Shown: positions 20,744 through 64,000, counted from the first letter of the stretch. The stretch is DNA of 64,000 bases from an uncultured Smithella sp. (GCA_964646755.1 CAZYIE010000011.1:4681-68680); one strand, 5' to 3'. Numbers and translations are program-made. The notes: generated from the letters alone by a model not told the origin.

Positions 20744-21799
20744 ATGGACATGAAGCGCGATTACTATGAAGATATCCAGCTGTTTGAAAGCAACGTTGTT
20801 TTATTCTGGTCCATTTCCTTTCTGATTTTTATTTTTACCTTACCGTTATACGTTCCAGATTATCACTTTTATTTGCTGAATCTTGTGCTTGTTCACGTCA
20901 TTCTGGCAGTAGGGCTGAATATACTCGTCGGTTATACCGGGCAAATCTCACTCGGCCATGCTGGTTTCTTTGCTATCGGCGCCTATGGGACGGCTTTGCT
21001 CATGCTGAAACTGCAATTGCCGTTTTTTGTGGCGTTGCCACTGGCCGGATTCATTGCCGCCTTTTTCGGTTTTATTCTCGGCTTGCCAGCCCTCCGCCTG
21101 GAGGGCCCCTATTTGTCGATTGCGACGCTCGGATTCGGGTTGACCATCATGCAGATTATCGGCCACTGGGATTTCTTTGGCGGGCGCACCGGCATTCAGG
21201 TTCCACCCCTCGATATCGGTTTTGGTTTTATCCTGAAGACCGATATCAGCAAGTATTACCTGATCCTGATTATTACTGTACTGTTGGTGATTGCCGCCCG
21301 AAATCTCATGAAAACCCGTGTCGGCCGCGCCTTTGTGGCTATTCGGGACAGCGATATCGCCGCGGAAGTAATCGGTGTGAACCTGACCGCCTACAAGACT
21401 CTTTCCTTTGCTGTCAGCGCTTTCTATGCCGGTATTGCCGGGGGCCTCTTCGGCTTTGTTCTCGGCTATTTTAACCCTGAGCCGTTCAACCTCATTCTGT
21501 CCATTATCTTTCTAGTTATGATCGTTGTCGGAGGGCTGGGTTCCATCTTGGGGGCCATCCTCGGCGCCAGTCTGATCACGATCCTTCAGTTCAGCCTGCT
21601 GAAGAACATCAAGGAAATGCCATATGTCGGCGACTTCCTGGTGGCTGTCTCGAACCGGTGGTTTACCGTTGTGGGATTAGAAAATTTCGGCAGCATTGTT
21701 CTCGGCCTTATTATGATTGGCATTGTCATCTTCGAACCTCTGGGGATGTATGGCGTCTGGCTGCGGATTAAAAAATACTGGCGGACGTGGCCGTTTTAA
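20744..21799 (+). CDS. Liv-type ABC permease (LivM-like), cassette A
   Basis: 351 aa. Contains GYTGQISLGHAGFFAIGAY. The C-terminus is ...RIKKYWRTWPF. Confidence 0.9.
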   Translation: MDMKRDYYEDIQLFESNVVLFWSISFLIFIFTLPLYVPDYHFYLLNLVLVHVILAVGLNILVGYTGQISLGHAGFFAIGAYGTALLMLKLQLPFFVALPLAGFIAAFFGFILGLPALRLEGPYLSIATLGFGLTIMQIIGHWDFFGGRTGIQVPPLDIGFGFILKTDISKYYLILIITVLLVIAARNLMKTRVGRAFVAIRDSDIAAEVIGVNLTAYKTLSFAVSAFYAGIAGGLFGFVLGYFNPEPFNLILSIIFLVMIVVGGLGSILGAILGASLITILQFSLLKNIKEMPYVGDFLVAVSNRWFTVVGLENFGSIVLGLIMIGIVIFEPLGMYGVWLRIKKYWRTWPF

Positions 21800-21825
21800 T
21801 TGTTTTCTTAATCTAGGGAGGTTGC

Positions 21826-22698
21826 ATGTTTGGTCAACTGATCATGGAAGGACTCGCCATTGGTATCTGCTACGCTCTGTTCGGCATTGCTGTTGTCATC
21901 ATTTATAAAACATCCGAGGTTGTCAATTTCGCCCAGGGAGAGATGGCCATGCTCTCAACGTTTGTGGCATTTCAAATCCTGACCATTTATCAATGGCCTT
22001 TCTGGATGGCCTTCATCGGGACGATGATTTTTGCCGTCCTGCTGGGCATTTTCATCGAGTTCTTCTTTCTTCGGCCGGCTAAGGATCCCAGCCTTCTGGG
22101 ACTGATCGTCATTACCCTCGGTGCGGAGATGCTTCTCATGGGTGTTGCCGGATGGAAGTGGGGGGCTGAGCAGAAAGAATTTTCCCTTCCTTTCTCTTTT
22201 TCCAGCACGCATGAGCTGTTTCAAGGTGTTATTATTAATGACTGGACGATTGCTGTTTTTATGACGGCGGCCTTTCTAATGATTTTTCTGTTCTTGTTTT
22301 TCAGGTACACAAAATTGGGTGTGGCCATGCGGGCCACTCAGCAGAACCAACATGCTGCCAGAATTATGGGCATCCGAGTAGAACGGGTTTTTTCCTTTGC
22401 GTGGGGCTTCAGCTCAATGATCGGCGCTATTGCCGCGATGTTCTTTGCCGCTCGTTCGACGGTTGATCCTGCGTTCATGATGGAACCATTTCTCCGGGCT
22501 TTTGCGGCGGCCGTTCTCGGCGGTTTGATGAGTATTCCCGGTGTCGTCATCGGTGGCGCAATTCTGGGGTTGTTGGAAAACATGTTTGGCTATTTCTGGC
22601 CGGAGTGGAAGCCCATTGTTGCCTTTTTGGTGATTATTGTTGTCCTGTGCATCCGCCCCAGCGGGCTGTTTGCCAAACATTACATAAAGAAAGTGTAG
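21826..22698 (+). CDS. Liv-type ABC permease (LivH-like), cassette A
   Basis: 290 aa. The motif VVNFAQGEMAM is typical of LivH. GGGAGG RBS is present. Confidence 0.9.
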   Translation: MFGQLIMEGLAIGICYALFGIAVVIIYKTSEVVNFAQGEMAMLSTFVAFQILTIYQWPFWMAFIGTMIFAVLLGIFIEFFFLRPAKDPSLLGLIVITLGAEMLLMGVAGWKWGAEQKEFSLPFSFSSTHELFQGVIINDWTIAVFMTAAFLMIFLFLFFRYTKLGVAMRATQQNQHAARIMGIRVERVFSFAWGFSSMIGAIAAMFFAARSTVDPAFMMEPFLRAFAAAVLGGLMSIPGVVIGGAILGLLENMFGYFWPEWKPIVAFLVIIVVLCIRPSGLFAKHYIKKV

Positions 22699-22700
22699 TC

Positions 22701-23195
22701 ATGCTATCGTTGATGATGGGGAAATCGAAAATCCTTTTTCAATTTATCCGGGGCGGTATTGCAGTAGCAATCGTTTTTTGCTGTTTCGCCTTTTGTGCTG
22801 AAGGTCTTTGTGCGGAGCCTCCCGTTAAAACAGCCTCTTTACAGGAAGAGCAGGCCATTTATGAAGCAGCTAAAAAGTATCTCGATGCCGAAATCAGAAG
22901 AGATCTCCCCGCCGTTTACGCCTGCCTGGCGCCGTCTTCAGTTTATTGTGCCACCCATGACTATGAGGCCTTTCTTGCCGAGGCCAATGCCTCCTCGGTC
23001 AGAATCGTGGGATATAAAATACTCCGTATCGCTAACATTCGAGATAATGAAGACCTCAAAAGTTTTCCCAAGGTAGAGAAGTTTGCCCATGTCGAAGTTG
23101 ATGTCATCGTTTTTTATAAGGACACTAATGTGAAGGGTGACATCAATTTCGGGTTTACGTTCATCAAGGAAATGGGCAAGTGGTATAAAGGCTGA
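22701..23195 (+). CDS. small exported protein of unknown function inside cassette A
   Basis: 164 aa from ATG 22701, 3 nt after the permease stop. The track ORF at 22605 overlaps the permease. There is an N-terminal hydrophobic signal or anchor (GIAVAIVFCCFAFCAEGLCA). I recognise no family motif. Confidence 0.55.
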   Translation: MLSLMMGKSKILFQFIRGGIAVAIVFCCFAFCAEGLCAEPPVKTASLQEEQAIYEAAKKYLDAEIRRDLPAVYACLAPSSVYCATHDYEAFLAEANASSVRIVGYKILRIANIRDNEDLKSFPKVEKFAHVEVDVIVFYKDTNVKGDINFGFTFIKEMGKWYKG

Positions 23196-23232
23196 TGTCC
23201 GTTAAAAAATTAAGGAAGAGAAGGGGGAGATC

Positions 23233-24426
23233 ATGAAGAAGCAAAGATTAAGCGTTTTATCTTTTATTATCGTCATGTCGTTTTTCGTTTTAACTGCGTC
23301 AGTTTACGCAGCACCCGGTTTTGATGACAAAGAGATCCGGATTGCCGCCTGGGGGCCGCAGACTGGTCCGGCGGCGCCTTGGGGGAGTGTTGCCCGGGGG
23401 CCATCCGTACTGGCGGCCCTGATCAATGATGAAGGCGGGATTAACGGTCGCAAGCTGAAGCACTTTGTCCGGGACGACATGTACAACCCGGCGCAAACAA
23501 AGGTTGTCGTGAAGGAACTCGTTGAAAAGCAGGGCATCTTTGCCTTTGTGTGCGGAACCGGTTCCGCCGGCGGTCTGGCTGTAAAGGATTATCTGGCAGA
23601 GCACAAGGTGATCTGGGTAGGTCCGGCAACGTCCATCAAAGAATATGTCTTTCCAGTCAATCCCTATCTTTTCAGTATTTATCCGCTATATGAGGATGAA
23701 GGGAGTATCCTGGCCAAGTATGCAGTGGAAAAGCTCAATATAAAAGAAATCGGTGTGATCTATCAGAATGATCCTTACGGCAAAAATGGTCTGGACGGTG
23801 TCAGGCAGCGGCTGGATAAACTCGGGATGAAGGCAGTGGCAGAGATACCAATTGAATCAACGGAGAAGGATCTGTCTTCCCATATTCTGAAGTTGAAAAA
23901 TTCAGGAGCCAAGGCTGTTTTAATGTGGGTCAATCCGACCTCCGGCGTCATTCTCCTGAAAACGGCTGCGACCATAGGTTACAAGCCACAATGGATTGCT
24001 TCCAATACTTTGTCGGACTTCGCCCTGATGCATAAAATTTCCGGCGGATTATGGGAAGGGGTGATCACGGGTTCGTTCATGCTTCCGCCCGATTCCACTG
24101 ATCCTCGGATTGTGAGATATCGGAATGCCATCCAGAAATATGCGCCGGAAGAACGGCCGGGGCTTTTCTTCATGGCCGGTATGATGTTCACGGAACCTCT
24201 CATCGACGCCTTGAAGAGGGCAGGGAAGAAACTGAGCACGGAAGCGGCCCTCAAAGCATTGAATTCGACAAAAAACTTCCAGGGAACCGGCCCGCGGGTG
24301 AACTGGACTGCAGCGCAGCATCAAGGTACCGATTCCATTCAGATATGGAAGTGCGGACCGGGTGGCAGCACGGCACTGATTCAGGATTGGACGGTCAATG
24401 AGTTGGCTACCTGGAAAAAGAAGTAA
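23233..24426 (+). CDS. periplasmic substrate-binding protein (type I PBP, LivK-like), cassette A
   Basis: 397 aa. A signal peptide ends ..ASVYA. The motif INDEGGINGRKL is typical of the Peripla_BP_6 family. Confidence 0.9.
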   Translation: MKKQRLSVLSFIIVMSFFVLTASVYAAPGFDDKEIRIAAWGPQTGPAAPWGSVARGPSVLAALINDEGGINGRKLKHFVRDDMYNPAQTKVVVKELVEKQGIFAFVCGTGSAGGLAVKDYLAEHKVIWVGPATSIKEYVFPVNPYLFSIYPLYEDEGSILAKYAVEKLNIKEIGVIYQNDPYGKNGLDGVRQRLDKLGMKAVAEIPIESTEKDLSSHILKLKNSGAKAVLMWVNPTSGVILLKTAATIGYKPQWIASNTLSDFALMHKISGGLWEGVITGSFMLPPDSTDPRIVRYRNAIQKYAPEERPGLFFMAGMMFTEPLIDALKRAGKKLSTEAALKALNSTKNFQGTGPRVNWTAAQHQGTDSIQIWKCGPGGSTALIQDWTVNELATWKKK

Positions 24427-24469
24427 TCAGTATTTTGGATTTATTAAATTTTAACAGATGACTTTGTTT

Positions 24470-24528
24470 CCCCGCCTCAACTGGGCTTTCCCCTTCCAGG
24501 GGGAGAGCCCGAAGGTGGACGGGGTTTT
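24470..24528 (+). terminator. intercistronic terminator-like stem-loop between the SBP and ATPase genes
   Basis: Long imperfect hairpin. The outer stem is CCCCG../..CGGGG and the inner stem is GGGCUUUCCCC/GGGGAGAGCCC. It is followed by UUUUGU. Confidence 0.6.
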
Positions 24529-24571
24529 GTAACGGAATAAAATTATTCCTAAAGAAGGAACTTTTGTAAAC

Positions 24572-25357
24572 ATGGATCACTTCAGGGTTGAAAATCTGAG
24601 CATCAGTTTTGGTGGTTTAAAGGCCGTCAACAACGTGAGTTTCAATGTTGAACCCAACAGCATTTTTTCCATTATCGGTCCCAACGGTTCGGGAAAGACG
24701 ACTATATTTAATCTGATATCCGGTATCTACCATCCCAACAGCGGTCGAATTATCCTGGATGGGGAAGATATGGTGGGTAGGACACCGGATCGTATCGCTC
24801 GCAAGGGTATTGCCCGAACCTTCCAGAATATTGAACTGTTTGCCAAGGCAACGGTGATGGATAATATCATGTTGGGCCGGCACATCCACATGAAAACAGG
24901 TATATTTACCGGCGCCACTATGTTGGGGAGAAGGTCCCGGGCGGCGCGTGAAGAGATAAAAAACCGGGAGATTGTGGAGGGGATCATCGACTTTCTGGAT
25001 TTGCAGTCGTCTCGCGATCAGTATGTGGCGAGTCTGTCTTATGGTAAGCGGAAATTGGTCGAATTGGGTCGGGCTTTGGCCCTGCAACCAAAGATTTTGC
25101 TTCTGGATGAACCGTCGGCGGGAATGAATACGGAAGAAAAGGAAGATCTCAATATTTGGATCAAGGATATTCGTGAGGATTATAAGGTCACTATTTTACT
25201 CATCGAGCATGACATGAATATGATCATGGGTATCTCCGACCGTATATTTGCCATCAATCACGGCGAGAAGATCACCGAAGGTCTTCCCCGCGATGTCCAG
25301 ACCCATCCGGAGGTCATCAAGGCCTACCTTGGGGAGGAGGATATATTTCATGCTTAA
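24572..25357 (+). CDS. ABC ATPase (LivG-like), cassette A
   Basis: 261 aa. Walker A is GPNGSGKTT, the signature is LSYGKRK and Walker B is LLLDEP. Confidence 0.93.
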   Translation: MDHFRVENLSISFGGLKAVNNVSFNVEPNSIFSIIGPNGSGKTTIFNLISGIYHPNSGRIILDGEDMVGRTPDRIARKGIARTFQNIELFAKATVMDNIMLGRHIHMKTGIFTGATMLGRRSRAAREEIKNREIVEGIIDFLDLQSSRDQYVASLSYGKRKLVELGRALALQPKILLLDEPSAGMNTEEKEDLNIWIKDIREDYKVTILLIEHDMNMIMGISDRIFAINHGEKITEGLPRDVQTHPEVIKAYLGEEDIFHA

Positions 25358-26132
25358 AGTTAGTAATGTGGAAACCTGGTATGATCTTATCCGAGCTCTT
25401 CACGGTATCTCCTTTCAGGTGACTCAGGGCAATATCGTTGCCCTTCTCGGCTCCAATGGGGCTGGTAAATCGACTACCTTAAAGACGATTCTCCGGCTCC
25501 TATATGAGTTGAAGGAAGAACAGCCGGAAAAGGGAACCATCGAGTTTCTTGGGCAGCGCATCGATAGGAAGGATACGGACGAAATCGTTAGAATGGGCAT
25601 CAGCTATGTCCCGGAAGGCCGGGAGGTTTTCCCCGAGCTGACTGTAATGGAGAACATTCAGATGGGCGCCTATACGAGAAAAGACAGGAAAGGCATTAAG
25701 TCTGATATCGATCGCATCCTGAAGCGTTTTCCGATTCTGAATGAACGACGAAATCAGCAGGCGGGTTATCTCAGCGGCGGGGAGCAGCAGATGCTGGCTA
25801 TCGGTCGGGCGCTCATGAGCCGGCCTAAGCTCCTGATGCTCGATGAACCATCACTGGGTCTGTCGCCTTTGCTAACCAACGATATTTTCCACATCATTAA
25901 GGAAATAAACGAGAAGGACGGTGTGACAATCCTGTTGGTTGAACAGAATGTCAATATGGCGCTCAGGTATTCCCATTTTGCCTACCTGATGGAAAATGGC
26001 AGAATCGTTCGTGCAGACAAACCGGAAGTTCTGCGTGAAGACGATGACGTGAAGGAGTTCTACCTGGGAATCGCGAAAGAGGTGTCGGTGAAGGGATTCA
26101 AGCGCTACCGCAGAAAGGTAAGATTTCGATGA
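25350..26132 (+). CDS. ABC ATPase (LivF-like) with a basic/aromatic C-terminal tail, cassette A
   Basis: ATG 25350 gives an ATGCTTAA overlap with the livG-like stop. Walker A is GSNGAGKST, the signature is LSGGEQQ and Walker B is LMLDEP. A tail follows EFYLG: IAKEVSVKGFKRYRRKVRFR. Confidence 0.92.
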   Translation: MLKVSNVETWYDLIRALHGISFQVTQGNIVALLGSNGAGKSTTLKTILRLLYELKEEQPEKGTIEFLGQRIDRKDTDEIVRMGISYVPEGREVFPELTVMENIQMGAYTRKDRKGIKSDIDRILKRFPILNERRNQQAGYLSGGEQQMLAIGRALMSRPKLLMLDEPSLGLSPLLTNDIFHIIKEINEKDGVTILLVEQNVNMALRYSHFAYLMENGRIVRADKPEVLREDDDVKEFYLGIAKEVSVKGFKRYRRKVRFR

Positions 26133-27964
26133 CCCAGTTAACTAATCAGTTCCCCAATTCAATAGTAGATACGCTACCGAAGGCTCTGGTCCATCTCGCC
26201 CAAAAACAGCCTGAGCGGATTGCCTTGAGGCGCAAGGATTTCGGCATCTGGCAAGATATTTACTGGTCGGGATACCTGGAGAATGTCAAACAGGTAGCGT
26301 TGGGGCTTCATGCCCTGGGCGTCAAGCGGGGAGACCATGTCTCCATAATCGGGGAAAATAAACCAGAGTGGCTCTATAGCGCCCTGGGTGTCATGTCCAT
26401 AGGAGCGACCTTCGTTGGGGTTTACACGACGAATCCTCCTGCCGAATGTGAATATGTTGTAGGCCATTCCGAATCTGCGGTTTACATCTGCGAAGATGAA
26501 GAACAGTTCGACAAGGCTCTTGTTTTTCGGTCCCGGACGCCGCATTTACGTAAGCTGATTGTCTGGGATATGGAAGGGCTGCGGCACTTTGAAGACCCCA
26601 TGATGATGAGTTTTGACGACCTCCTGGCTCTGGGAAAAAAGACCGGTGATGAGCATCCTCAACTATTTGATGAGCTTGTGGCAGGGGGCAAGGGAGAAGA
26701 TATCGGCGGTATCATTTATACATCAGGAACGACTGGTCCACCGAAGGGAGCCATGCTGTCTCATGAAGGTTATCTTTGGGTTGGCAAACAGGCCAGTTTT
26801 ATCACCCGAACCGTTATTGATGACGAGACGATTTCGTTTCTGCCGCTGAATCATGTTTATGAACAGATTTTTGATATGATGGTGCACTTGACGGTAGGTC
26901 ACATTGTGAATTTTACAGAAAATACCGATACTGTTACCATGGACATGCAGGAAGTTTCTCCAACGCTGTTTCATGCAGTGCCGAGGATATGGGAGAAATA
27001 CTATTCCAGCATCATTTTAAAGATGGCCGATGCAACATGGCTCAAAAGAAAGAGTTATGATGTGGCCCTCAATATCGGGTCTCAATACAACGCCGTAAAA
27101 CTCAGCGGTAAAACGCCGTCACCGGCACTGAAACTGGCCTATTGGGCGGCCTACTTTGTAGTTTTTCGAAAGTTGAAGAAGCGCCTGGGGTTTGACCGGG
27201 TGCGTCTGGGGTTTTCCGGCGCCGCGCCTATCTCGCATAATATCTTGAAGTATTTTCAAAGTATCGGCATCCCCATCCGGGAAGGTTACGGAATGACCGA
27301 GACAACAGGGATTACCCATATGTCCGATGAGTTCAACTTCAAACTGGGAACTGTCGGCAAAGCCCTGCCGGAGACGGAAGTGCGGATTGCCGAAGATGGA
27401 GAAATTCTGGTTAAACATAAAGGGATCATTAAAGGCTACTTCAGGGATGAGGAGAACACCCGGGAGGCTGTTCATGACGGCTGGATGCATACGGGTGATG
27501 TGGGTGAGATCGACGAAGAAGGCTACCTGAAAATCACGGATAGGAAGAAGGATCTGATCATTACGGCTGGGGGTAAGAATATTGCTCCGCAATACATTGA
27601 GAATATGTTGAAGTTCTCCCCTTATATTAATGATGCTGTCATCATCGGCGACAAACGAAAATTCATTGCTGCGCTCATTGTTATTGACGAGGAGAACGTC
27701 GTTAAATATGCTCAGGACAACAAGGTCCAGTACACAACATTTGCCAGTCTAACCAAGTCGGAAGAAGTCGTGAATCTGATCTCGGCGGAGATCAACAAGG
27801 TCAACGATCAGGTGGCGCGTGTGGAAAACATCCGGAAGTTCAGAATCCTCGACAAAAAGCTTTACACCGAAGACGGGGAAGTTACTCCAACCATGAAGGT
27901 CAAGCGCAAGTCCATCAATGAACAGTATAAAGATCTCATAGAAGAAATGTACAGAAGCGATTGA
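26129..27964 (+). CDS. AMP-forming long-chain-type acyl-CoA synthetase (COG1022-like, 611 aa), cassette A
   Basis: Motifs YTSGTTGPPKGAMLSH, GYGMTET, TGDVGEIDEEGYLKITDRKKDLIITAGGKNIAP and PTMKVKRK. Its ATG overlaps the LivF-like stop (ATGA). Confidence 0.92.
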   Translation: MTQLTNQFPNSIVDTLPKALVHLAQKQPERIALRRKDFGIWQDIYWSGYLENVKQVALGLHALGVKRGDHVSIIGENKPEWLYSALGVMSIGATFVGVYTTNPPAECEYVVGHSESAVYICEDEEQFDKALVFRSRTPHLRKLIVWDMEGLRHFEDPMMMSFDDLLALGKKTGDEHPQLFDELVAGGKGEDIGGIIYTSGTTGPPKGAMLSHEGYLWVGKQASFITRTVIDDETISFLPLNHVYEQIFDMMVHLTVGHIVNFTENTDTVTMDMQEVSPTLFHAVPRIWEKYYSSIILKMADATWLKRKSYDVALNIGSQYNAVKLSGKTPSPALKLAYWAAYFVVFRKLKKRLGFDRVRLGFSGAAPISHNILKYFQSIGIPIREGYGMTETTGITHMSDEFNFKLGTVGKALPETEVRIAEDGEILVKHKGIIKGYFRDEENTREAVHDGWMHTGDVGEIDEEGYLKITDRKKDLIITAGGKNIAPQYIENMLKFSPYINDAVIIGDKRKFIAALIVIDEENVVKYAQDNKVQYTTFASLTKSEEVVNLISAEINKVNDQVARVENIRKFRILDKKLYTEDGEVTPTMKVKRKSINEQYKDLIEEMYRSD

Positions 27965-28145: not shown

Positions 28146-29762
28146 ATGAAAACAGAAAATAAAACTGCGCCGCTGCTGGTTGGTGCCGCACAGTATACCC
28201 AGCCCAAAGATGTTGTTTGCGCCCTGGATCCGCTGGGGCTTATGATCAAAGCCAGCCGTGCAGCATTTGCTGATGCAGGTGCTGGTGGTCTGGCGGCGCT
28301 TGTTGATACGGTATGTGTGGTCAATAGTTTTTCCCGGGATGATGAAAACACTGCTGCCGCATTGGCGGCAGCAGTAGGCATTCGGCCACGGGAGGCCATC
28401 TACTCGGCAATCGGTGGTAATACTCCCCAAAAACTGGTCAACAGGTTTGCCCGTGATATTGCGGCAGGCAGAAGAAGGGGGGTATTAATTTCCGGCGCGG
28501 AAGCCGTTTATGCCATGTACAGAGCATCCCGCGGAACAACAAAACTTGACTGGCCTGATAACATAACCCTTCAGCAGCTCAATACCCATAATCTTCCTAC
28601 TAATTTTGACGCCATGCTCCATCTGGGTTGTGACCACGAAAAGGAAATACTGGAAGCCCGGGGCGATAAGTATGACGAACCCAACAACACGATAGAAAAA
28701 GCCTACGATCTTTTTCTGCCTCAGTATATGTATCCTTTTTTTGAAACCGCTCTGCGGCGTTTCGCCGGGAGAACGCCTGAGGAACACCGCCTCTACATGG
28801 GCAGGCGCTATGAACGCCTTTCCCAGATTGCTTCCGAGAACCCCTATGCCTGGAACCGCAAGTTCCTATCGGCAGATGAGATTACGCTGCCGACAGCACA
28901 CAACCGCTTTGTGGTCTATCCCTACACCCTCCGCATGATGTCCAACATCAATGTTGATCAAGCGGCGGCTCTGATTATGACCAGTGAGAGCGATGCCCGG
29001 GCACTGGGCATTGAATCTTCACGATGGGTTTATCCGATGGGTGGGGCGGAATTGAATAATATCCGGCACGTCACACAAAGGCCGCGGCTTTACGATTCGC
29101 CGGCCATTACGGAAGCATCCCGCTTGGCCCTGCAGCAAGCCGGTTTGTCTCTCGGCGATATTGGAATATTTGACCTTTATAGTTGCTTTCCCTCTGCTGT
29201 GGACATTTCCCGTCAGGCCATCGGAATTGACGAAAATGATTCTCGCGATTTATCGGTAACAGGAGGACTTGCCTATTTTGGTGGTCCCGGGAATAATTAT
29301 TCCCTGCACGCCATCGCTACCGTCATGAGCCATATCCGCCGGGATCGTCGCTTAAAAGCTATGGTAACGGCCAATGGCTGGTACAACTCCAAACATGCCA
29401 TTGGCATCTATGGTGCGGAATCTCCGGCGAACCCCTGGGAGGATGAAGATTATTCGGCAATCCAGAAAGCAATCGATGCCGAAGCTTTACCCGAGCCGGT
29501 TGAACGAGCAGAAGGTCCTTTGACGGTTGAGGCATATTCGATTCGGTATGATGCCGCCGGGCATCCGGAGCGTGTCACCGTTATTGGTAGCCTGCAGAGC
29601 GGTCGCCGGGCACTGGCAGATATTCAAGCCGAGACACACGAACTCAGAAAACTCGAGCAGGTCAAGCTGGTAGGAAAGACAGGTGCAGCAAGATTTAACT
29701 TTGCAGCAGGCAGGAATTCCGTGGTTTTTGATCCTGCCCTGTATCAGTCCATGACGCCATAA
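28146..29762 (+). CDS. thiolase-fold protein fused to a C-terminal OB/DUF35-like domain (538 aa)
   Basis: The first ~420 aa have thiolase-like layout and motifs (..VTGGLAYFGGPGNNYSLHAIA..). The C-terminal ~110 aa (EGPLTVEAYSIRYDAAGHPERVTVIGSLQSGRRALADI..) resembles the OB half of the DUF35 protein at 50165-50584. Confidence 0.6.
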   Translation: MKTENKTAPLLVGAAQYTQPKDVVCALDPLGLMIKASRAAFADAGAGGLAALVDTVCVVNSFSRDDENTAAALAAAVGIRPREAIYSAIGGNTPQKLVNRFARDIAAGRRRGVLISGAEAVYAMYRASRGTTKLDWPDNITLQQLNTHNLPTNFDAMLHLGCDHEKEILEARGDKYDEPNNTIEKAYDLFLPQYMYPFFETALRRFAGRTPEEHRLYMGRRYERLSQIASENPYAWNRKFLSADEITLPTAHNRFVVYPYTLRMMSNINVDQAAALIMTSESDARALGIESSRWVYPMGGAELNNIRHVTQRPRLYDSPAITEASRLALQQAGLSLGDIGIFDLYSCFPSAVDISRQAIGIDENDSRDLSVTGGLAYFGGPGNNYSLHAIATVMSHIRRDRRLKAMVTANGWYNSKHAIGIYGAESPANPWEDEDYSAIQKAIDAEALPEPVERAEGPLTVEAYSIRYDAAGHPERVTVIGSLQSGRRALADIQAETHELRKLEQVKLVGKTGAARFNFAAGRNSVVFDPALYQSMTP

Positions 29763-47864: not shown

Positions 47865-47883
47865 TTAAACCACAATTGGCTGA

Positions 47884-56040: not shown

Positions 56041-56074
56041 TAAACTCAGAATGTAAAGAGAAAAGGAATAAAAA

Positions 56075-57217
56075 ATGGATTTCGCACTGACTGAAGAACA
56101 GGGATTTGTTAAAGATACGATACAGAAGTTTGTGGCGAAAGAGTGTGAGCGGGAAGCCATCAAAAAAATGGATGAAGAAGGGATATTCCCCGGAAAACTC
56201 TTTGGCAATGTGGCCGATATTGGTCTTTGCGCGTTAACCGTTCCCGAAGCCTATGGCGGCGGTGGACCCAATACCTTGGGGGCGGTTATCGTGACCGCCG
56301 AACTTGCGGCCATTTATCCCGCATTGGCCGGAGCTTTTGCCACCCAGAGTTTTTGCGGGGGCAAGGTTATTGCCGATGTAGGGACCGAGGCGCAGAAAAA
56401 CAAATATCTTCCCGGTGTGATTGATGGATCAGCACTGATTACGCTAGCCCTGATGGAACCGGGGCAGGGTTATGAGGAAACGGGCAATATGACGATAGCC
56501 CGGCCGGAAGGTGAACAGTTTGTTCTCAACGGAACAAAAACGTTTGTGCGCCTGGCCGATCGGGCCGCTTTTATGATTACACGCGTTGCGATAGCGAGCA
56601 CCGAAGGTGTCCCGGCTTTTCTGATTGTCGATATGAAGAGCCCCGGGATCGTTGTCCGTCCGCTTGCGCAGGTCGGATTTCACGGCATGAGCCTTTGTGA
56701 GGTGTCGCTGAACTCCGTTACTGTTGGGGCAAGTGAGCGTCTCGGTGGTGATGCCGACGCAGCAGCTGAGCAAAAGAAATTTGAACGGATCATGAGCGCC
56801 GAACATCTGGCTGTCGCAGCCTGCGGGATGGGACTGGCGAAGGGCGCTTATGAATATGCGCTCAATTATGCCAAGGAGCGCTCACAGTTCGGCCGGCCGA
56901 TTATCAAGTTTGGCGCCATCCAGGAAATTCTGGTGGATATGGCCCAACACGTACGCGTAGCGGAGCTGATGACTTGTCAGGCTGCATCTCTTGCTGATCA
57001 AGGGAAGGATTGTCTGGCTGAAATTATTCAGGCGCGGCTGGTGGCAACCCAAGCGGCGCGCAAGGCATCACTGCATTGTGTGCAGATTTTCGGTGGCTAT
57101 GGTTATGCTATGGAATACGATGCTCAACGTTATTTGCGGGATGCCATGGTAGTGCTCAGCGGAGGCGGAACCAAGCAGACCTTAAGCAACACGCTGGCGT
57201 CACTCTGGAATTATTGA
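56075..57217 (+). CDS. acyl-CoA dehydrogenase (standard ~380 aa form)
   Basis: 380 aa. It is ACAD-like throughout (..LALMEPGQGY.., ..FGGYGYAMEYDAQRYLRDA..). Confidence 0.88.
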   Translation: MDFALTEEQGFVKDTIQKFVAKECEREAIKKMDEEGIFPGKLFGNVADIGLCALTVPEAYGGGGPNTLGAVIVTAELAAIYPALAGAFATQSFCGGKVIADVGTEAQKNKYLPGVIDGSALITLALMEPGQGYEETGNMTIARPEGEQFVLNGTKTFVRLADRAAFMITRVAIASTEGVPAFLIVDMKSPGIVVRPLAQVGFHGMSLCEVSLNSVTVGASERLGGDADAAAEQKKFERIMSAEHLAVAACGMGLAKGAYEYALNYAKERSQFGRPIIKFGAIQEILVDMAQHVRVAELMTCQAASLADQGKDCLAEIIQARLVATQAARKASLHCVQIFGGYGYAMEYDAQRYLRDAMVVLSGGGTKQTLSNTLASLWNY

Positions 57218-57504: not shown

Positions 57505-58698
57505 ATGAGAAAGGGTTTGTTTTGGATACTGTTGGTGATTACGTGCATGTCCCTGCCGGTTGCTGCAATGGCGGCCGACACTCCGGGTGTGACCAAAGAC
57601 GAGGTCGTAATCGGTATGACCTGTCCCATGTCCGGACCGGCAGCCCTGTGGAGCGCTATGGCGCTCGGCAATTCAGCCTGGGCCAAACATATTAATGATC
57701 AGGGCGGCATTCACGGACGCAAAATCAAGTTTGTGGTTAAAGATGACGGGTACAACCCGAGTCGGGCACTAGCCAATCTTACGGAAATGAAGAACGACGT
57801 CCTCGCGTTCGGATGCGTGATTGGATCGGCTACGGCCAATGCCAGCAAGGATTTTCTCTTAACGAGCAAGGTGCCGGTAGTGCATGTCCACGCCAACCCC
57901 CGCATCTGGTTAGCGACACCAACCGCCGAGCGGCGGCACATTTTTATCGCCTATCCTGACTACATCGACGAGGCCGAAGCTGTTACAAACTATGCCGTCA
58001 CCAAGCTGGGGATTAAGACCATCGCCCTGTTCGGCCAGAACGACGATTGGGGAAAATCAGCCGAGATCGGCATTCAGAAAGCTATCAAGAAACTGGGCAA
58101 TAAAGGAAAATTTGCCGGCTTCATAACCTTTGAGCCGACAGACCGTGCTGTGGGTGGCCATGCCCTGAAACTCAAGGAACTGGGCGCCGATGCCGTAATT
58201 ATCTACGGACCGCCGACTCAGGCGGCACTAATCATTAAAGAAATGTCCAAGATCGGTTATAAACCAAAGATTTTCACCGCCAATCCACTGGGCGATCCCC
58301 TGATGTACAAGATAGCCGGCCCATTGTGGGAAGGTGCTTATCCCGCTGCTTCTGGTAATGTTTCGATGCCCGGGATAGAGCCACAGGCCGATAAGATCGT
58401 CGAAATTCTTCTGAAGTACGAACCGGCTTTAAAGGGGCGGGAATTTCTCGCTGTGACCGGCGCCACGACGATGATGCTGATAGCTGAAGGCTTGAAAAAA
58501 GCCGGCCCGAACCTGACGCGCGATAGTTTCGTCAAGGCGATGGAGAGCATCAAAGATTTCAAATGTGAGGGGATGGGTGCTCCCATTACCTTCTCCGCCA
58601 CTCAACACCACGGACTGAATGCTATCCGGGTCTGTGAGGCGAAAGATGGAAAGCATGTGCCGATCAGCGGGTACATGATCTTTAAACCCCTATTTTAA
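57505..58698 (+). CDS. periplasmic substrate-binding protein (type I PBP, LivK-like), cassette C
   Basis: 397 aa from ATG 57505. A signal peptide ends ..PVAAMAA. Contains INDQGGIHGRKI. Confidence 0.9.
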   Translation: MRKGLFWILLVITCMSLPVAAMAADTPGVTKDEVVIGMTCPMSGPAALWSAMALGNSAWAKHINDQGGIHGRKIKFVVKDDGYNPSRALANLTEMKNDVLAFGCVIGSATANASKDFLLTSKVPVVHVHANPRIWLATPTAERRHIFIAYPDYIDEAEAVTNYAVTKLGIKTIALFGQNDDWGKSAEIGIQKAIKKLGNKGKFAGFITFEPTDRAVGGHALKLKELGADAVIIYGPPTQAALIIKEMSKIGYKPKIFTANPLGDPLMYKIAGPLWEGAYPAASGNVSMPGIEPQADKIVEILLKYEPALKGREFLAVTGATTMMLIAEGLKKAGPNLTRDSFVKAMESIKDFKCEGMGAPITFSATQHHGLNAIRVCEAKDGKHVPISGYMIFKPLF

Positions 58699-58713
58699 GG
58701 TGATTTGAAGAAA

Positions 58714-59466
58714 ATGAGCTTATTGAAGGTAGATAAACTGACCGTTTCGTTCGGGGGTATCAAAGCCCTGACGGCAATTGATTTTGCAATGGAGGAAAAA
58801 GAAATCCTCGCCATCATCGGTCCGAACGGGGCTGGTAAGACCACCCTCTTTAACTGTGTTTCGGGAGTTTATCATCCGACCAGTGGAGAGATTCTGTTTA
58901 ACGGGGAGAGCCTTTTGGGGCTCTCCCCCGACAGAATTGCTAAGCGGGGGATCGGCAGAACATTTCAGAATATACGTCTTTTTAATAACATGTCTGTTCT
59001 CGACAACCTCATGCTGGGCCGGCACATGAAATTCCAGCGGAACATCCTCCAGGCCTTTTTACGCATCCGGAAAGAAGAACTGGTTCACCGGGAGAAGGTT
59101 GAAGAAATTATCGATTTTCTCGATCTGGCGGCCTACCGGCAAGCCCGGGTCATCGATTGTCCTTATGGTGTACAGAAACGAGTGGAACTGGGGCGCGCCA
59201 TTGTCATGGAACCAAAACTCCTGCTGCTGGATGAACCGGTGGCGGGGTTGACGGTTGAGGAAAAAAACCGCGTGGCCTATCTGGTAACGGAGATGCGGGG
59301 CCGGTTCGGCTTTGGCATCCTGCTCATCGAGCATGATTTGCGCATTGTTTCCCGCCTGGCCGATCGCCTGGTGGTTTTGAATTTTGGACAGAAATTAGCA
59401 GAAGGCAATCCTGCGGAGGTGCAGCGAAACCCCGAGGTGATTCGTGCCTATGTCGGTGAAGGATAA
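58714..59466 (+). CDS. ABC ATPase (LivG-like), cassette C
   Basis: Walker A is GPNGAGKTT and Walker B is LLLDEP. ATG 58714 is preferred. The track start is TTG at 58705. Confidence 0.92.
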   Translation: MSLLKVDKLTVSFGGIKALTAIDFAMEEKEILAIIGPNGAGKTTLFNCVSGVYHPTSGEILFNGESLLGLSPDRIAKRGIGRTFQNIRLFNNMSVLDNLMLGRHMKFQRNILQAFLRIRKEELVHREKVEEIIDFLDLAAYRQARVIDCPYGVQKRVELGRAIVMEPKLLLLDEPVAGLTVEEKNRVAYLVTEMRGRFGFGILLIEHDLRIVSRLADRLVVLNFGQKLAEGNPAEVQRNPEVIRAYVGEG

Positions 59467-59467: not shown

Positions 59468-60241
59468 ATGAGCCTTTTAAAAATAGCCAGTATTGAAACC
59501 CTTTATTTCGATCGTATCTATGCCCTGCAAGGGATTTCCCTGGAAGTGCAGGAGAACGACATCTTCACCGTGCTGGGACCAAACGGGGCGGGGAAGACCA
59601 CGCTCTTGAAGACTATTGCGGGGCTCCTCAAAGACCAGCCCAAAAAAGGAACCATCGAGTTTTGCGGTAAAAAGATCAGCGGTCTGTCTCCGGAAAAGAT
59701 CGCTGCCATGGGCATTGTGTATGTGCCGGAGGATCGCGGACTTTTTAAGGAACTGACGGTTAAGGAAAATCTTGATCTGGGCTGTTGGGGTCGCCGGGAC
59801 AAAGACGTGAAGCACGACATAGACTTTATCTACGATCTCTTCCCTATTCTGAAGGAGCGAGGCGAACAGCAGGCGGAAACGCTTTCCGGTGGCGAGCAGC
59901 AGATGCTGGCCGTGGGTAGGGCCATCCTGCGCCGTCCGAAGCTTCTCATGCTGGACGAACCGTCTCTGGGGTTGTCCCCCATTATGGCGCGTACTGTGTA
60001 TGATACGCTCCGCAAAGTCAGTAAACGGAATATGACGATCCTCCTGGTCGAGCAGAATGCGAAAATGGCGCTGGACATCGCCAACTACGGATACATTATG
60101 GAGACAGGTCGGATTGTTCTGAAAGGGACATCTGCCGAGCTCAAAGAGAATGCCGACGTGAAGGAACTTTATCTGGGAATGGAGCAGGAAGGGGCCTCCG
60201 ACAAGGGGTACCGTTTTTATACGAAGCGGAGGAGATGGTAA
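59468..60241 (+). CDS. ABC ATPase (LivF-like) with a basic/aromatic C-terminal tail, cassette C
   Basis: ATG 59468 lies 1 nt after the livG-like TAA. Walker A is GPNGAGKTT, the signature is LSGGEQQ and Walker B is LMLDEP. A tail follows ELYLG: MEQEGASDKGYRFYTKRRRW. Confidence 0.92.
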   Translation: MSLLKIASIETLYFDRIYALQGISLEVQENDIFTVLGPNGAGKTTLLKTIAGLLKDQPKKGTIEFCGKKISGLSPEKIAAMGIVYVPEDRGLFKELTVKENLDLGCWGRRDKDVKHDIDFIYDLFPILKERGEQQAETLSGGEQQMLAVGRAILRRPKLLMLDEPSLGLSPIMARTVYDTLRKVSKRNMTILLVEQNAKMALDIANYGYIMETGRIVLKGTSAELKENADVKELYLGMEQEGASDKGYRFYTKRRRW

Positions 60242-62053
60242 ATGGAATTTCAGGCGAAGATTATCCCTCGGTCCTTTTTCGAGCAGACGGTGCGCTACCG
60301 GAACCGGGTGGCATTGCGGCACAAGCAGTACGGTATCTGGCACAAGGTTACCTGGGGGCAATACGGTGACCAGGTGCGCACGGTGGCTTCGGCAATTCTG
60401 TCTATGGGTCTTCCGAAAGGTCAGACGGTTTGTATTCTGGGAGACAACCGTCCGGAGTGGTTGATCTGCCATATGGCGGTTATGACGCTGGGCATGGCCA
60501 CCTGCGGGATCTACCCGACATCATCGTCCGACGAAATCCGTTACATCATCGACCATTCGGAAGCGAAACTGCTGTTTGTGGAGAACGAGGAACAACTGGA
60601 CAAGATCATGGACATTCTGCCGGATCTCAAACTTCAGCAGATTGTGGTGTGGGATGCGAAGGGTCTGTGGGGTTACCGGCATGACCAGGTGATCTTTTTT
60701 GAGGATTTCCTCAAGCAGGCCGAGGGGTTCCGGAAGGCTAATCCGGATGCCGTGGACAACATCGTGGAGACTATCGTGCCCGACGATACGGCGATGGTGA
60801 TCTACACATCGGGGACAACGGGGCGTCCCAAGGGAGCTCTTTTATCCCACAAGAATATTTCCACGGTCATTCAGGCCTTTTTGCAAATTATTCCCATTAA
60901 CGAGAATGACGAGGTGGTGTCCTACCTGCCGCTGGCCCACATCTTCGAGAACGCCGTATCGGTTTTCACGCCGGTGTTTACGGGGGCGACGGTGAACTTT
61001 GTTGAGAGCATGGATACTCTGGCGGCGAACCTGCGGGAGACGTCCCCGACGATTTTTGGCAGCGTGCCCCGTATCTGGGAGAAGTTCGCCTCGAACATTC
61101 ACATCAAGATGGACGACTCCACCTGGCTTAAGCGGTTTCTGTACAACCTCAGTTTCCAGGTGGGGAAGCGATACCTTACGGCCAAGTCGTCGGGGGATGC
61201 GTCTCTGCCTCTGTGGCGGGTGCTGTATTTTGCATCCTATTGGGGTGTGCTGTACCATCTGAAGCGGCAGCTGGGCTTCGAACGTATCCGTTGGGCCCTG
61301 TGCTCGGCGGCGGCAGCCTCGAAGGAGCTGTTCGAGTATTTCAACATCCTGGGCATTCCGCTGCGCGACGGGTACGGCCAGACGGAATCTACGGGGATCA
61401 TCGCCATCCAGCGCCTGGACAAGCTGCCTCGATACGGATATGTGGGCGAGGCCCTGCCGGGGTTGGAGATGAAAATCACGGAGGCCGGCGAGATCATTGC
61501 CAAAGGACCCGGGGTATTTAAAGGTTATTTCAAGAATCCCGAGCTGACGGCGGAGACGATCCGCGACGGCTGGCTGCACACGGGTGACCTGGGCGTCATT
61601 GACGACGGCTGGCTGAAGATCGTGGGGCGCATGAAGGACATCATCATTACCTCCGGCGGCAAGAACGTCACGCCGGAATTTATTGAGAATAAGCTGAAAT
61701 TCAGTACGTATATCCAGGACGCGGTTATTATCGGCGATGGGAAGCATTATCTGACGGCCCTGATTCTGATTGACGAAGACAACGTAATGAAGTTTGCCCA
61801 GGATAATAGGATTCCCTTTACGACCTACGAAGATCTGACGCAGAACAAGGAGATCAACAAGCTCATCGAAGGGGAGTTAAGCGAGGTGAACAAGACCCTG
61901 GCCCGGGTGGAGACGATCAAAAAGTTCCGTCTGATCCCGCGTCGGTTCTATGCGGAGGACGGGGACGTAACGCCGACACAGAAGGTCAAGCGGAGGAATC
62001 TGGAGAAGCAGTATAAGGATATTATCGATTCTATGTACAAGGGCGGCGAATAA
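60242..62053 (+). CDS. AMP-forming long-chain-type acyl-CoA synthetase (COG1022-like, 603 aa), cassette C
   Basis: Motifs YTSGTTGRPKGALLSH, GYGQTEST, TGDLGVIDDGWLKIVGRMKDIIITSGGKNVTP and TQKVKRR. Its ATG directly abuts the LivF-like TAA. Confidence 0.92.
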   Translation: MEFQAKIIPRSFFEQTVRYRNRVALRHKQYGIWHKVTWGQYGDQVRTVASAILSMGLPKGQTVCILGDNRPEWLICHMAVMTLGMATCGIYPTSSSDEIRYIIDHSEAKLLFVENEEQLDKIMDILPDLKLQQIVVWDAKGLWGYRHDQVIFFEDFLKQAEGFRKANPDAVDNIVETIVPDDTAMVIYTSGTTGRPKGALLSHKNISTVIQAFLQIIPINENDEVVSYLPLAHIFENAVSVFTPVFTGATVNFVESMDTLAANLRETSPTIFGSVPRIWEKFASNIHIKMDDSTWLKRFLYNLSFQVGKRYLTAKSSGDASLPLWRVLYFASYWGVLYHLKRQLGFERIRWALCSAAAASKELFEYFNILGIPLRDGYGQTESTGIIAIQRLDKLPRYGYVGEALPGLEMKITEAGEIIAKGPGVFKGYFKNPELTAETIRDGWLHTGDLGVIDDGWLKIVGRMKDIIITSGGKNVTPEFIENKLKFSTYIQDAVIIGDGKHYLTALILIDEDNVMKFAQDNRIPFTTYEDLTQNKEINKLIEGELSEVNKTLARVETIKKFRLIPRRFYAEDGDVTPTQKVKRRNLEKQYKDIIDSMYKGGE

Positions 62054-62118
62054 ACGGGATCGTGCCTCATCGTTGGAGGCCGGGCCGATACCTTTATGCA
62101 AAGTGAGAATGAATTCCT

Positions 62119-63099
62119 ATGAATTTAGTGGAAAGTTATAAAGACGATCTCAAATTAATTGAAAAACCATGGACGGGATGCTGGATTACGATGACCGTTA
62201 TTGCCCTGTTATTGCTTCCCTGGTTCGGCAGCGAGCATCTGATCTATATGGGCACCCTGATTTTTATCGTTTCCGTCGGTATCATGGGGCAGAATATTCT
62301 GATCGGGTATACGGGCCAGATTTCGTTAGGACAGGCGGGCTTTCTCGCCATCGGCGCCTTTAGCTTCGGCCATATGGCCCAAATGGGTGTACCGATAGGC
62401 TTGGCGCTTCTGGGTGCGGGATGCATGGCCGCCTTTTTCGGCGTACTGGTCGGGTTTCCCTCTCTGCGCCTGAAGGGGCCGTATCTGGCGATTGTAACTC
62501 TGGGGTTCGGCATTGCCGTGTATCAGACCTTTGCCAGTTTTGAGGTCCTCTCCGGAGGTAGGATGGGGCTTGTCATCCCGAAATTCCCCGCTCTTTTCGG
62601 CCTTACCCGGGAGGCGTCGATGTACTACTTTTCCCTTTTTCTGGGAATAGCCTTTACGCTGGCCACGTACAATCTCATTTCGTCTTATATGGGCAGGGCC
62701 TTTGTCGCCATACGGGACAACGATATTGCGGCGGAGGTGTTAGGCGTAAATCTCACCAGGTACAAACTCCTGTCCTTCGCCATCAGCTCATTTTATACAG
62801 GGATTCACGGCGCCATGTTCGCTATGTTCATGGGGTTCATTGACCCCCAGATGTTCAACTTTTCCGAATCCCTGATCATCTTCGTGGCTGTTGTCATTGG
62901 CGGTTTGGCTTCGGTGGAGGGTGCAATCTTCGGAGCTGCTTTCGTCATCCTGGTGCCGCAGGTATTCAGCGGTTACAAAGAATTCGTTCCCGTTATCTTC
63001 GGTGTGACGGTTATTTTTATCATGATCTTTGAGCCTCTTGGACTCGCGGGACGGTGGTTCAAGATGCGTCTTTACTACCGTAACTGGCCGTTCCGCTAA
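62119..63099 (+). CDS. Liv-type ABC permease (LivM-like), cassette C
   Basis: 326 aa with GYTGQISLGQAGFLAIGAF. The C-terminus is ...KMRLYYRNWPFR. Confidence 0.9.
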   Translation: MNLVESYKDDLKLIEKPWTGCWITMTVIALLLLPWFGSEHLIYMGTLIFIVSVGIMGQNILIGYTGQISLGQAGFLAIGAFSFGHMAQMGVPIGLALLGAGCMAAFFGVLVGFPSLRLKGPYLAIVTLGFGIAVYQTFASFEVLSGGRMGLVIPKFPALFGLTREASMYYFSLFLGIAFTLATYNLISSYMGRAFVAIRDNDIAAEVLGVNLTRYKLLSFAISSFYTGIHGAMFAMFMGFIDPQMFNFSESLIIFVAVVIGGLASVEGAIFGAAFVILVPQVFSGYKEFVPVIFGVTVIFIMIFEPLGLAGRWFKMRLYYRNWPFR

Positions 63100-63124
63100 C
63101 GATGTCGAGGAGGATGTACACAAC

Positions 63125-64000
63125 ATGGTAAACTTCATCCAATATCTGATTTCCGGTTTGTCAGCGGGCAGCCTTTACGCACTCGTTGCTCTGGGTGTCG
63201 TGCTGATCTACCGCTCCACGAGAATCCTGAATTTTGCCCATGGGGACATGGCGACGATGGGAACCTTTTTTGCTTTCACTCTTCTGTCCTGGCGTTTCCC
63301 CTTCTACATTGCTTTGCCGCTCAGCCTTTTGTTCGGGGCGCTGTTGGCCGTGGCCTTCTATTTCGCCATTATTGTGCCGGCTCAACGCCGTGATGCGACC
63401 ATGCTGGGGCAGATTACCCTCACGGTAGGATTAAGCATGATTTTTCAGGGGGCCATTGTCTATCTGTGGGGAACGGACTCCAAGATGTTGAGCTTTCCCC
63501 TATCGGATACAAAAACCTGGCAACTGGGGCCGATCTACCTGAATGAGCTGAGCGTTGGTACGCTGATTGTCGGTATCCTGGGCAGTGTGCTGTTGTATCT
63601 GCTCATTCAGAAGACCCGTCTGGGGCTGGCCATGAAGGCAACTTCGGAAAACCTGCCCGCAGCGCAGACACTGGGCATTCCGACGCGGACCATCCTTGCC
63701 ACTTCCTGGGGCCTTGCCGCCCTGCTGGGTGTTCTTGCCGGGCTCTTTCTGGCGCCGGCCCTGATTCTCGATCCCTTCTTCATGCTGGAGCCTTTCCTGA
63801 AGGGCTTTGCCGGGGCTATTCTGGGCGGAATGAACAGTCTTCCCGGCGCAATTATCGGGGGTCTTTTGATCGGCATTATCGAGAATCTTTGTGGCGGGTA
63901 CATTTCGCTGGAATTTAAAAATACGGTGCCCTTCATCATCATCATAATAGTTTTGTTATTCAAGCACGAAGGTCTCCTGGGGAAGGAATTCAAGGAACGG
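63125..64000 (+). CDS. Liv-type ABC permease (LivH-like), cassette C; the 3' end runs off the window
   Basis: Absent from the ORF track because there is no stop in the window. ATG 63125 reads MVNFIQYLISGLSAGSLYALVALGVVLIYRSTRILNFAHGDMA... and stays open to position 64000. Confidence 0.88.
   Translation, partial: MVNFIQYLISGLSAGSLYALVALGVVLIYRSTRILNFAHGDMATMGTFFAFTLLSWRFPFYIALPLSLLFGALLAVAFYFAIIVPAQRRDATMLGQITLTVGLSMIFQGAIVYLWGTDSKMLSFPLSDTKTWQLGPIYLNELSVGTLIVGILGSVLLYLLIQKTRLGLAMKATSENLPAAQTLGIPTRTILATSWGLAALLGVLAGLFLAPALILDPFFMLEPFLKGFAGAILGGMNSLPGAIIGGLLIGIIENLCGGYISLEFKNTVPFIIIIIVLLFKHEGLLGKEFKER

Follow-up and report, generated by a model that had tools for sequence, protein, structure and literature searches.

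ATP-binding cassette (ABC) transporters of the Liv type, of which LivFGHM with the substrate-binding proteins (SBPs) LivJ/K of Escherichia coli (HAAT family) is the reference system, rank among the most abundant ABC systems of environmental genomes, where they are routinely interpreted as taking up amino acids (PGAP GO:0015803). The passage of free fatty acids across the bacterial inner membrane, on the other hand, is described mainly as flip-flop followed by trapping by FadD; in E. coli FadL-FadD vectorial acylation, the acyl-CoA synthetase makes fatty-acid uptake effectively irreversible. Ligase genes also occur together with importer genes: the mycobacterial mce1 operon contains the ligase gene fadD5, and in anaerobic aromatic degraders Liv-type ABC genes lie beside genes for benzoate or other aromatic-acid CoA ligases. 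Here, we analyzed a stretch of 64,000 nucleotides from an uncultured Smithella sp. (GCA_964646755.1 CAZYIE010000011.1:4681-68680; hereafter, the window), in which an initial annotation had described three Liv-type importer cassettes, each with an acyl-CoA synthetase (hereafter, the ligase) of ~600 residues encoded within the operon. We find that the ligases of these cassettes belong to a single clade that is encoded inside Liv-type operons across many phyla and that co-occurs with a basic C-terminal tail on LivF, and we think it likely that every cassette forms a self-contained module for the uptake and activation of a free carboxylic acid.

Listing of the open reading frames (ORFs) in the window and Pfam scans bore out the three cassettes and every gene named in them at the coordinates given previously, and the JGI gene calls for the source contig, the 85-kb metagenome contig Ga0207193_1000334, match. 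All three have the architecture of the HAAT family (LivFGHMK type), i.e. two BPD_transp_2 permeases (H and M), two ATPases (G and F) and a secreted Peripla_BP_6 SBP (K), and all are on the + strand. Cassette A (20744-27964) has the order M-H-x-K-G-F-ligase and encodes M (20744-21799; PF02653, E = 1.5e-39; 42% identity to M of cassette B), H (21826-22698; PF02653, E = 1.1e-41), the product of gene x, an SBP with a signal peptide (23233-24426; PF13458, E = 2.8e-64), G (24572-25357; PF00005 + PF12399, the latter being BCA_ABC_TP_C), F (25350-26132; 260 residues in the JGI call) and an ACSL/COG1022-type ligase (26129-27964; PF00501 + PF23562). Cassette B (36696-45086) has the order F-G-ligase-H-M-hydrolase-K, with F at 36696-37490, G at 37478-38266 (PF00005 + PF12399), the ligase at 38256-40127 (start ATG 38256), H at 40169-41068 and M at 41077-42111 (both PF02653), a hydrolase gene, and an SBP with a signal peptide at ~43875-45086 (PF13458; the ORF opens at 43701 but the real start is at ~43875). 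Cassette C extends from 57505 to past 64000 in the order K-G-F-ligase-M-H, with an SBP with a signal peptide at 57505-58698 (PF13458), G at 58705-59466 (Pfam scan), F at 59468-60241, the ligase at 60242-62053 (PF00501 + PF23562), M at 62119-63099 (PF02653), and H from 63125 to past 64000 (PF02653), where it is cut by the end of the window. As the gene coordinates confirm, the ligase gene lies directly 3' of the ATPase pair in all three cassettes; the ATPase/ligase junction is an ATGA stop/start overlap in A and an 11-nucleotide overlap in B, and in C the TAA abuts the ATG. Read from the alignment, the ATPases have intact Walker A/B and signature motifs, with GxNGAGKT/S for Walker A, LSGGEQQ and LLMLDEP.

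The cassette ligases are of the ACSL/FACS type (COG1022; PF00501 and PF23562 correspond to AMP-binding and AMP-binding_C_3) and, based on the alignment, have intact YTSGTTGxPKG and GYGxTE motifs, the FACS signature DGWxHTGDxG…DRKKD and the C-terminal catalytic Lys region PTxKVKRK. Their best NCBIfam match is FadD11, under cut-off, and the named close homologues of the window ligase are from metagenome-assembled genomes of Syntrophales/Thermodesulfobacteriota. With the aligned ligases of the window as query, we searched GTDB, taking a single genome for each species, and annotated the resulting 80 diverse loci with profiles made from the window's own proteins. The strong-scoring ligases with enough flanking sequence were all encoded inside Liv-type operons (L001-L029, L033, L036, L037) in at least eight phyla; the operons of a further group (L044-L061) are arranged as Acs-G-H-M-..-F, in which Acs is the ligase gene, and weaker-scoring homologues are stand-alone. 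Carriers include Pelagibacteraceae (SAR11), Pseudomonadales, Burkholderiales, Rhodobacterales, Desulfobacterales and Smithellaceae as well as Acidobacteriota, Gemmatimonadota, Rokubacteria, Saprospiraceae and several actinomycete families, and the module is also present on plasmids of Sulfitobacter, Azospirillum, Rhodococcus and others. In neighbor-joining trees without bootstrap, 43 of 43 linked ligases form one clade apart from 39 stand-alone homologues, and the window ligases fall in this ABC-linked clade; the sole ligase classified as stand-alone within the clade (L028) is on a contig that ends right after the ligase gene. Linked and stand-alone ligases differ at seven diagnostic positions (D128, G150, L151, I519, V524, L550 and D582) and by one indel of a single residue, with the acidic D128 and D582 being conserved in linked ligases only. 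Thus, the concern that the ligase adjacency might not be kept beyond this genome is answered by its conservation across many phyla in a single ligase clade.

The same survey bears on how the cassettes arose. In the ligase tree, gene order tracks clade: A groups with L095 (M-H-K-G-F-Acs), B with L008 (F-G-Acs-H-M-K, an order shared by the metagenomic operon L164), and C with L002/L003 (G-F-Acs-M-H). For all but two components, the nearest relative lies in the same foreign locus as that of the ligase of the cassette (L095, L008 and L002/L003, respectively). The exceptions are G of cassette C, with its nearest relatives in L014, L013 and L021, and the SBP of cassette C, which is nearest to the SBP of cassette A. 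Between the cassettes, identities are 40-44% for the ligases, 47-55% for F, 48-54% for G, 35-42% for M, 32-36% for H and 28-34% for the SBPs; the alignments thus establish a paralogy that is real but old. We reject local shuffling of recent duplicates on the basis of the nearest relatives of all components, which are in foreign operons of the same gene order. Of the description of A, B and C as shuffled paralogous cassettes, the paralogy therefore stands while the shuffling in this genome does not: by tree position and gene order, A, B and C are three ancient operon types, each with a gene order conserved in other phyla. Because the ligase diverges in step with F, G, M, H and K (correlation of pairwise distances, r = 0.86-0.89), as tightly as F does with G (r = 0.90), we conclude that it has been passed on together with the transporter. 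The module is old, and its inheritance has been both vertical and horizontal.

A second feature that sets these operons apart is in LivF. The F proteins of the window are 44-46% identical to E. coli LivF and continue for ~20-24 residues past the ..YLG end with a basic tail (IAKEVSVKGFKRYRRKVRFR in A, ~20 residues at ~26070-26129; LTDVGTKKSFRDVKHYKRRKRWLS in B; MEQEGASDKGYRFYTKRRRW in C), with a Trp at or near the end in B and C, while the A tail ends in RFR and is without Trp. We defined a tail-bearing LivF subfamily as having a basic extension of 15-27 residues after ..FYLG with a Trp at or near its end; the Trp is missing from 2 of 44 tails, that of cassette A among them. In the genome sample, 41 of 41 F subunits of linked operons are tail-bearing, and three tail flavors (…KHYKRRKRWLS, …GVRGERRWKKKKTWR and …KGYxRYKRKRTWR) track operon type. 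The only tail-less F subunits in linked loci, three in number, are all from separate Liv systems without a ligase. As a reverse test, we scanned metagenome contigs with an alignment of F that included the tail-less E. coli LivF and counted evaluable loci: the linked type of ligase follows 7 of 8 tail-bearing F compared with 0 of 17 tail-less F (Fisher p = 1.7e-5). The co-occurrence of tail-bearing LivF-like genes with the ligase, which the initial annotation had proposed to examine across genomes, was thus found in both directions. Because in one locus (L114, 4020-6376) a tail-less Liv operon is followed by a classical PF13193 ligase, the tail goes with the linked ligase clade and not with ligases generally. 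A comparable tail on LivG was looked for and not found. We note that another locus (L125, 14-2879) has a tail-bearing F and a PF13193 ligase 730 nucleotides downstream.

The position of the ligase gene had been taken as a sign that ligase and ATPases form a selected unit. Among 44 linked loci, the ligase gene lies directly 3' of an ATPase gene in 33, is first and followed by G in six, and is elsewhere in two; in the remaining three (L031, L049 and L052), the ATPase gene upstream of the ligase is part of a separate tail-less Liv system. Because the loci are not independent, we counted them as ~10 distinct architectures. On this basis, an ATPase gene lies immediately upstream of the ligase gene in 7 of 10 architectures compared with a random expectation of 1/3 (binomial p ~0.02), and ATPase adjacency on either side, observed in 8 of 10 with 0.6 expected, is not significant. 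The adjacency is conserved across phyla, but only modestly above chance over independent architectures. The positional argument is thus no more than suggestive; monophyly, co-divergence and the tail weigh more.

As for the substrate, the family relationships would by themselves suggest genuine importers of branched-chain or other hydrophobic amino acids next to a ligase that acts on something else: the best NCBIfam and PDB sequence matches of the components are LivFGHMJ/K components, and PGAP labels the permeases as branched-chain amino-acid transporters. The NCBIfam matches, however, are all far under the equivalog cut-offs (scores versus cut-offs of 229/441 for F, 282/362 for G, 162/366 for M, 104/379 for H and 86/477 for K), none of which is reached. 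The SBPs of the window are distant from solved structures, with the best PDB matches (4n03, 3lop and 3lkb) at 70-100 bits, and are ~20% identical to LivJ/K. In the LivJ and LivK structures, we take Glu226, Tyr202 and Thr102 to hold the alpha-ammonium and alpha-carboxylate of the amino acid, with Glu226 of LivJ being the ligand of the ammonium group. In alignments of ~20% identity, Asn takes the place of Glu226 in the SBP of every cassette, and the SBPs of A and C have also lost Tyr202; in alignments of similarly low identity, the Glu226 column is acidic in 0 of 41 linked SBPs and is Asp in 9 of 22 unlinked SBPs. The linked-operon SBP of an actinomycete (L021) has 4n03 as its sole PDB match (E = 4e-44), an entry that is presumably a fatty-acid complex. 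Moreover, no amino-acid catabolic genes adjoin the cassettes, and beta-oxidation genes flank all three. Published precedents point in the same direction. COG0683 SBPs of R. palustris do not bind branched-chain amino acids but bind other amino acids and aromatic, fatty and dicarboxylic acids (PMC3223731), and RB-TnSeq in Ralstonia shows pimelate specificity for a five-gene Liv-type transporter as well as for the ligase next to it (PMC12543098). The 'ABC transporter' for C7/C8 fatty acids in the latter study proved to be an Mla system and not of the Liv type. Together, the lost Glu226 equivalent, the beta-oxidation context and these precedents indicate carboxylic-acid rather than amino-acid substrates, in agreement with the proposal made from the window alone, and leave the amino-acid importer as a very improbable explanation. 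Fatty acids of medium or long chain length, or else related acids that are alicyclic or substituted, would be the most likely substrates.

A predicted function in carboxylic-acid import followed by thioesterification is, we conclude, well supported by the comparative evidence. In such an uptake-and-activation module, the secreted cluster-B SBP would capture the acid in the periplasm, and the LivH/LivM-type permease pair, powered by the LivG/LivF-type ATPase heterodimer, would import it; the dedicated ligase, which is ACSL-like and AMP-forming and is produced from the same message, often with translational coupling, would then turn the acid at once into acyl-CoA, which would trap it and feed the beta-oxidation enzymes encoded alongside. 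Because an SBP is present, we infer that transport is inward. Several observations weigh against this module or against a close coupling of its parts. The Glu226 argument depends on alignments of only ~20% identity and is supportive, not decisive, and a search of the literature returned no ligand, transport or enzyme assay for any module member. ABC-dependent ATP hydrolysis plus AMP-forming activation for each molecule is costly for a syntroph, which argues for scavenging rather than bulk flux. One locus (L088, 3337-5479) is an exception to the tail/ligase rule in that its tail-bearing F has an SBP gene alone beside it, and in 2 of 10 architectures (L027 and L036) the ligase gene lies away from the ATPase gene. 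No ORF with both ligase and ATPase domains was found in ~160 loci, no fusion of F or G with the ligase was found in ~55 operons, and when F and the ligase were joined into one query for a search of 1.84 billion representative proteins, no fusion was among the top 150 matches. Most of these were single ligases of ~600 residues, besides some fragments of ligases and a single 258-residue LivF-like protein (P0176); the best match was a 602-residue ligase with 528 bits, and a fusion should score higher; the five longest matches (P0140, P0206, P0235, P0250 and P0261) are without an ABC domain. Similarly, a docking domain or insertion specific to linked ligases was looked for and not found, the seven clade-specific residues and the single-residue indel being the only differences. 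We note that P0250, one of the longest matches, contains an extended acidic insertion of low complexity that includes hydrophobic segments.

The uptake-and-activation module could thus be no more than an ordinary co-regulated catabolic operon, in which the ligase would be a soluble, independent enzyme and the tail would function in membrane or permease binding or in trans-inhibition by acyl-CoA via its basic residues. This is quite possible, although we stop short of calling it probable: the missing fusions and docking domain, the exception in L088 and the clustering of tail-less transporter genes with other types of ligase, as in L114 and in the aromatic-acid clusters, all fit with it, yet it leaves unexplained that the tail is restricted to systems with this one ligase clade and that the ligase clade is never away from the transporter in our sample. 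Conversely, in an obligate physical coupling, the LivF tail would dock the ligase on the ATPase dimer, the imported acid would be handed over, and transport would depend on thioesterification. The strict co-occurrence of tail and ligase, the location of the ligase gene directly 3' of an ATPase gene in 7 of 10 architectures with often overlapping stop and start codons, the co-divergence of ligase and ATPases that is as tight as that between the ATPases, and the conservation of D128 and D582 in linked ligases only would all be accounted for, and the peroxisomal association of an ABC transporter with ligases provides a precedent (PMC4652930). A further argument is P0140 (L164, 2486-4666, in an operon with the order F-G-Acs-H-M-K), a linked ligase with an insertion of ~130 residues containing four hydrophobic segments at approximately residues 300-405, which is probably a membrane-anchored variant. 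On the other side are the lack of a Rosetta-stone fusion both in the ~55 operons and in the 1.84-billion-protein search, the lack of a docking domain in the ligase, and the presence of the tail also in operons of the Acs-G-H-M-..-F type, whose F gene is distant from the ligase gene; an AlphaFold2 model of F, built on an alignment of only three sequences, is of low confidence (mean pLDDT 58.6, tail <50), so that the tail is uninterpretable. On balance, we regard an obligate physical coupling as a live hypothesis but an unlikely one, and we are equally doubtful that the LivF tail serves the ligase as a docking arm, by which importer and ligase would form a complex for bacterial SBP-dependent vectorial acylation from SAR11 to actinomycetes and syntrophs. 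Action of the ligase at the membrane or the transporter is hinted at by the co-occurrence of tail and ligase, by the translational coupling at the junctions and by the insertion in P0140. Most likely, coupling within the module is kinetic or arises from proximity, in that the ligase would work at or close to the transporter, perhaps tethered by the tail, rather than being an obligatory mechanical step of the transport cycle.

The LivF tail together with the linked-ligase clade makes for a simple sequence marker that would allow this subfamily to be re-annotated as carboxylic- or fatty-acid importers, and this would alter the reading of carbon flux in syntrophs as well as in soil bacteria and marine heterotrophs. 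Uptake that is driven by ATP, depends on an SBP and has a ligase of its own would offer a distinct alternative, with high affinity, to flip-flop and FadD, and the co-occurrence of tail and ligase offers an experimental handle on the coupling of an ABC importer to a downstream enzyme. If the tail were indeed a docking arm, a large share of the counted 'branched-chain amino-acid transporters' would be uptake machines for fatty or organic acids.

Further features lie in and ahead of the cassettes. A promoter-like site with a perfect sigma-70 consensus (TTGACA-16-TATAAT, 12/12 matches; 20634-20661, +) lies ~80 nucleotides ahead of cassette A, and the extended promoter-like motif TTCTTGACATCAAA is present upstream of cassette A and again at ~29990-30010 (+), before the acyl-CoA dehydrogenase gene at 30238. 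Operator motifs common to the upstream regions of all three cassettes were looked for and not found. In cassette A, the gap that separates the SBP gene from the genes for G, F and the ligase contains a strong GC-rich hairpin followed by a U run (24470-24530, +; minimum free energy -47.2 kcal/mol, z = -3.15). It may be an attenuator or mRNA stabilizer, and the ratio of SBP to transporter expression is perhaps set there. The hydrolase encoded in cassette B (42371-43696, +) is a secreted serine hydrolase of the beta-lactamase fold with a signal peptide (PF00144); its closest NCBIfam match, 3-succinylated cholic acid synthase, is weak and far under cut-off, and the protein may be a periplasmic esterase or amidase that frees the transported acid from an ester or amide. 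Gene x (22701-23195, +), which in cassette A separates the permease genes from the SBP gene, encodes a protein of 164 residues with an N-terminal signal or anchor (ATG 22701 is the true start; the JGI call has 160 residues); it had no match in Pfam or NCBIfam, belongs to no known family and is absent from the nearest foreign operon, L095.

Pfam scans of the intervening genes, which include FadB-like fusions, thiolases and acyl-CoA dehydrogenases, confirmed that the cassettes alternate with beta-oxidation genes. The first module (28146-35880, +) encodes a thiolase-like protein, a long acyl-CoA dehydrogenase, a FadB-like protein and a thiolase. The second, an acyl-CoA catabolic module (45531-57217, +), encodes a short-chain dehydrogenase/reductase (SDR), a protein of the HpaB/4-hydroxybutyryl-CoA-dehydratase family, an NMO-like protein, an SCP-x thiolase, a DUF35/ChsH2-like protein, MaoC, an acyl-CoA dehydrogenase, a FadB-like protein, a classical AMP-ligase and another acyl-CoA dehydrogenase. 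This fourth ligase of the window (54374-55984) is of the classical PF13193 type and shares only ~25% identity with the cassette ligases. The HpaB/4-hydroxybutyryl-CoA-dehydratase family protein (46419-47864, +) is encoded beside the SDR and the NMO-like protein in a host that is apparently a strict anaerobe, and a dehydratase-type activity is more likely for it than that of an oxygenase. A trio at 48961-51062 (+), consisting of the SCP-x type thiolase, the ChsH2-like DUF35 protein (Zn ribbon + OB fold) and the MaoC hydratase, is typical of side-chain or branched/alicyclic acyl-CoA degradation. Two long acyl-CoA dehydrogenases (~615-620 residues) with Acyl-CoA_dh_C are encoded ~18 kb apart at 10750-12594 (-) and 30238-32103 (+) and are probably paralogues. 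Further upstream of cassette A, we observed a gene for a secreted pentapeptide-repeat protein of 123 residues (20072-20443, -; …ANLSGANLSKANLAGARL…), over which a + strand ORF without a family match (19995-20561) is a shadow ORF, and a lone gene for a FlgB-like flagellar rod protein of 116 residues (19566-19916, +) with no further flagellar genes nearby.

How, then, does the module compare with described systems? With E. coli LivFGHM-LivJ/K it shares the five components and their Pfam families, with G having the BCA_ABC_TP_C end in both, but F of the cassettes has a basic tail of 20-25 residues that LivF lacks, the ligase is an integral member of the operon, and the SBPs, ~20% identical to LivJ/K, are without Glu226 and have lost Tyr202 in A and C; no component reaches an NCBIfam equivalog threshold. 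FadL/FadD differs by having no ABC energization at the inner membrane, and Mce systems have YrbE/MceG and Mce proteins instead of a Liv-type permease and SBP. The clusters of aromatic degraders and the system in L114 likewise combine a Liv-type importer with an AMP-forming CoA ligase for a carboxylic acid, but this ligase is of the classical PF13193 type and its gene does not lie between ATPase and permease genes, and in L114 F is tail-less. NCBIfam holds no curated family for any component of the module, and a full-text literature search returned no description of it, i.e. of a Liv-operon ligase clade with a diagnostic LivF tail. The statement in the initial annotation that no transporter-ligase unit was known is nevertheless too strong. 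In peroxisomes, the ABC transporter CTS has part of the LACS6/7 in physical association with it (PMC4652930), and both CTS and Pxa1-Pxa2, acting with LACS6/7 or Faa2, likewise pair an ABC transporter with an ACSL-type synthetase on the trans side; these are, however, eukaryotic ABCD proteins of the exporter fold, full- or half-size and without an SBP, which accept acyl-CoA that is cleaved before the acid is re-esterified. Closer are the COG0683 SBPs of R. palustris and the ABC cluster beside pimFABCDE, which are likewise Liv-type and whose SBPs bind fatty and dicarboxylic acids (PMC3223731), and the pimelate transporter of Ralstonia/Cupriavidus (ABZR87_RS12600-20), which is likewise Liv-type and has a neighboring CoA ligase of the same specificity (RS12625) (PMC12543098); in these pimelate systems, the ligase gene follows the SBP gene (Ralstonia) or is in a separate operon (pimA). 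The HAAT importer, the ACSL ligase, clusters of transporters with activating enzymes and 'Liv' SBPs that bind organic acids (PMC3223731) are thus known already. What appears to be new, with the proviso that absence from a literature search is not proof, is a monophyletic ligase clade that is encoded inside Liv operons in every evaluable locus of our sample, together with a LivF tail that is diagnostic of it.

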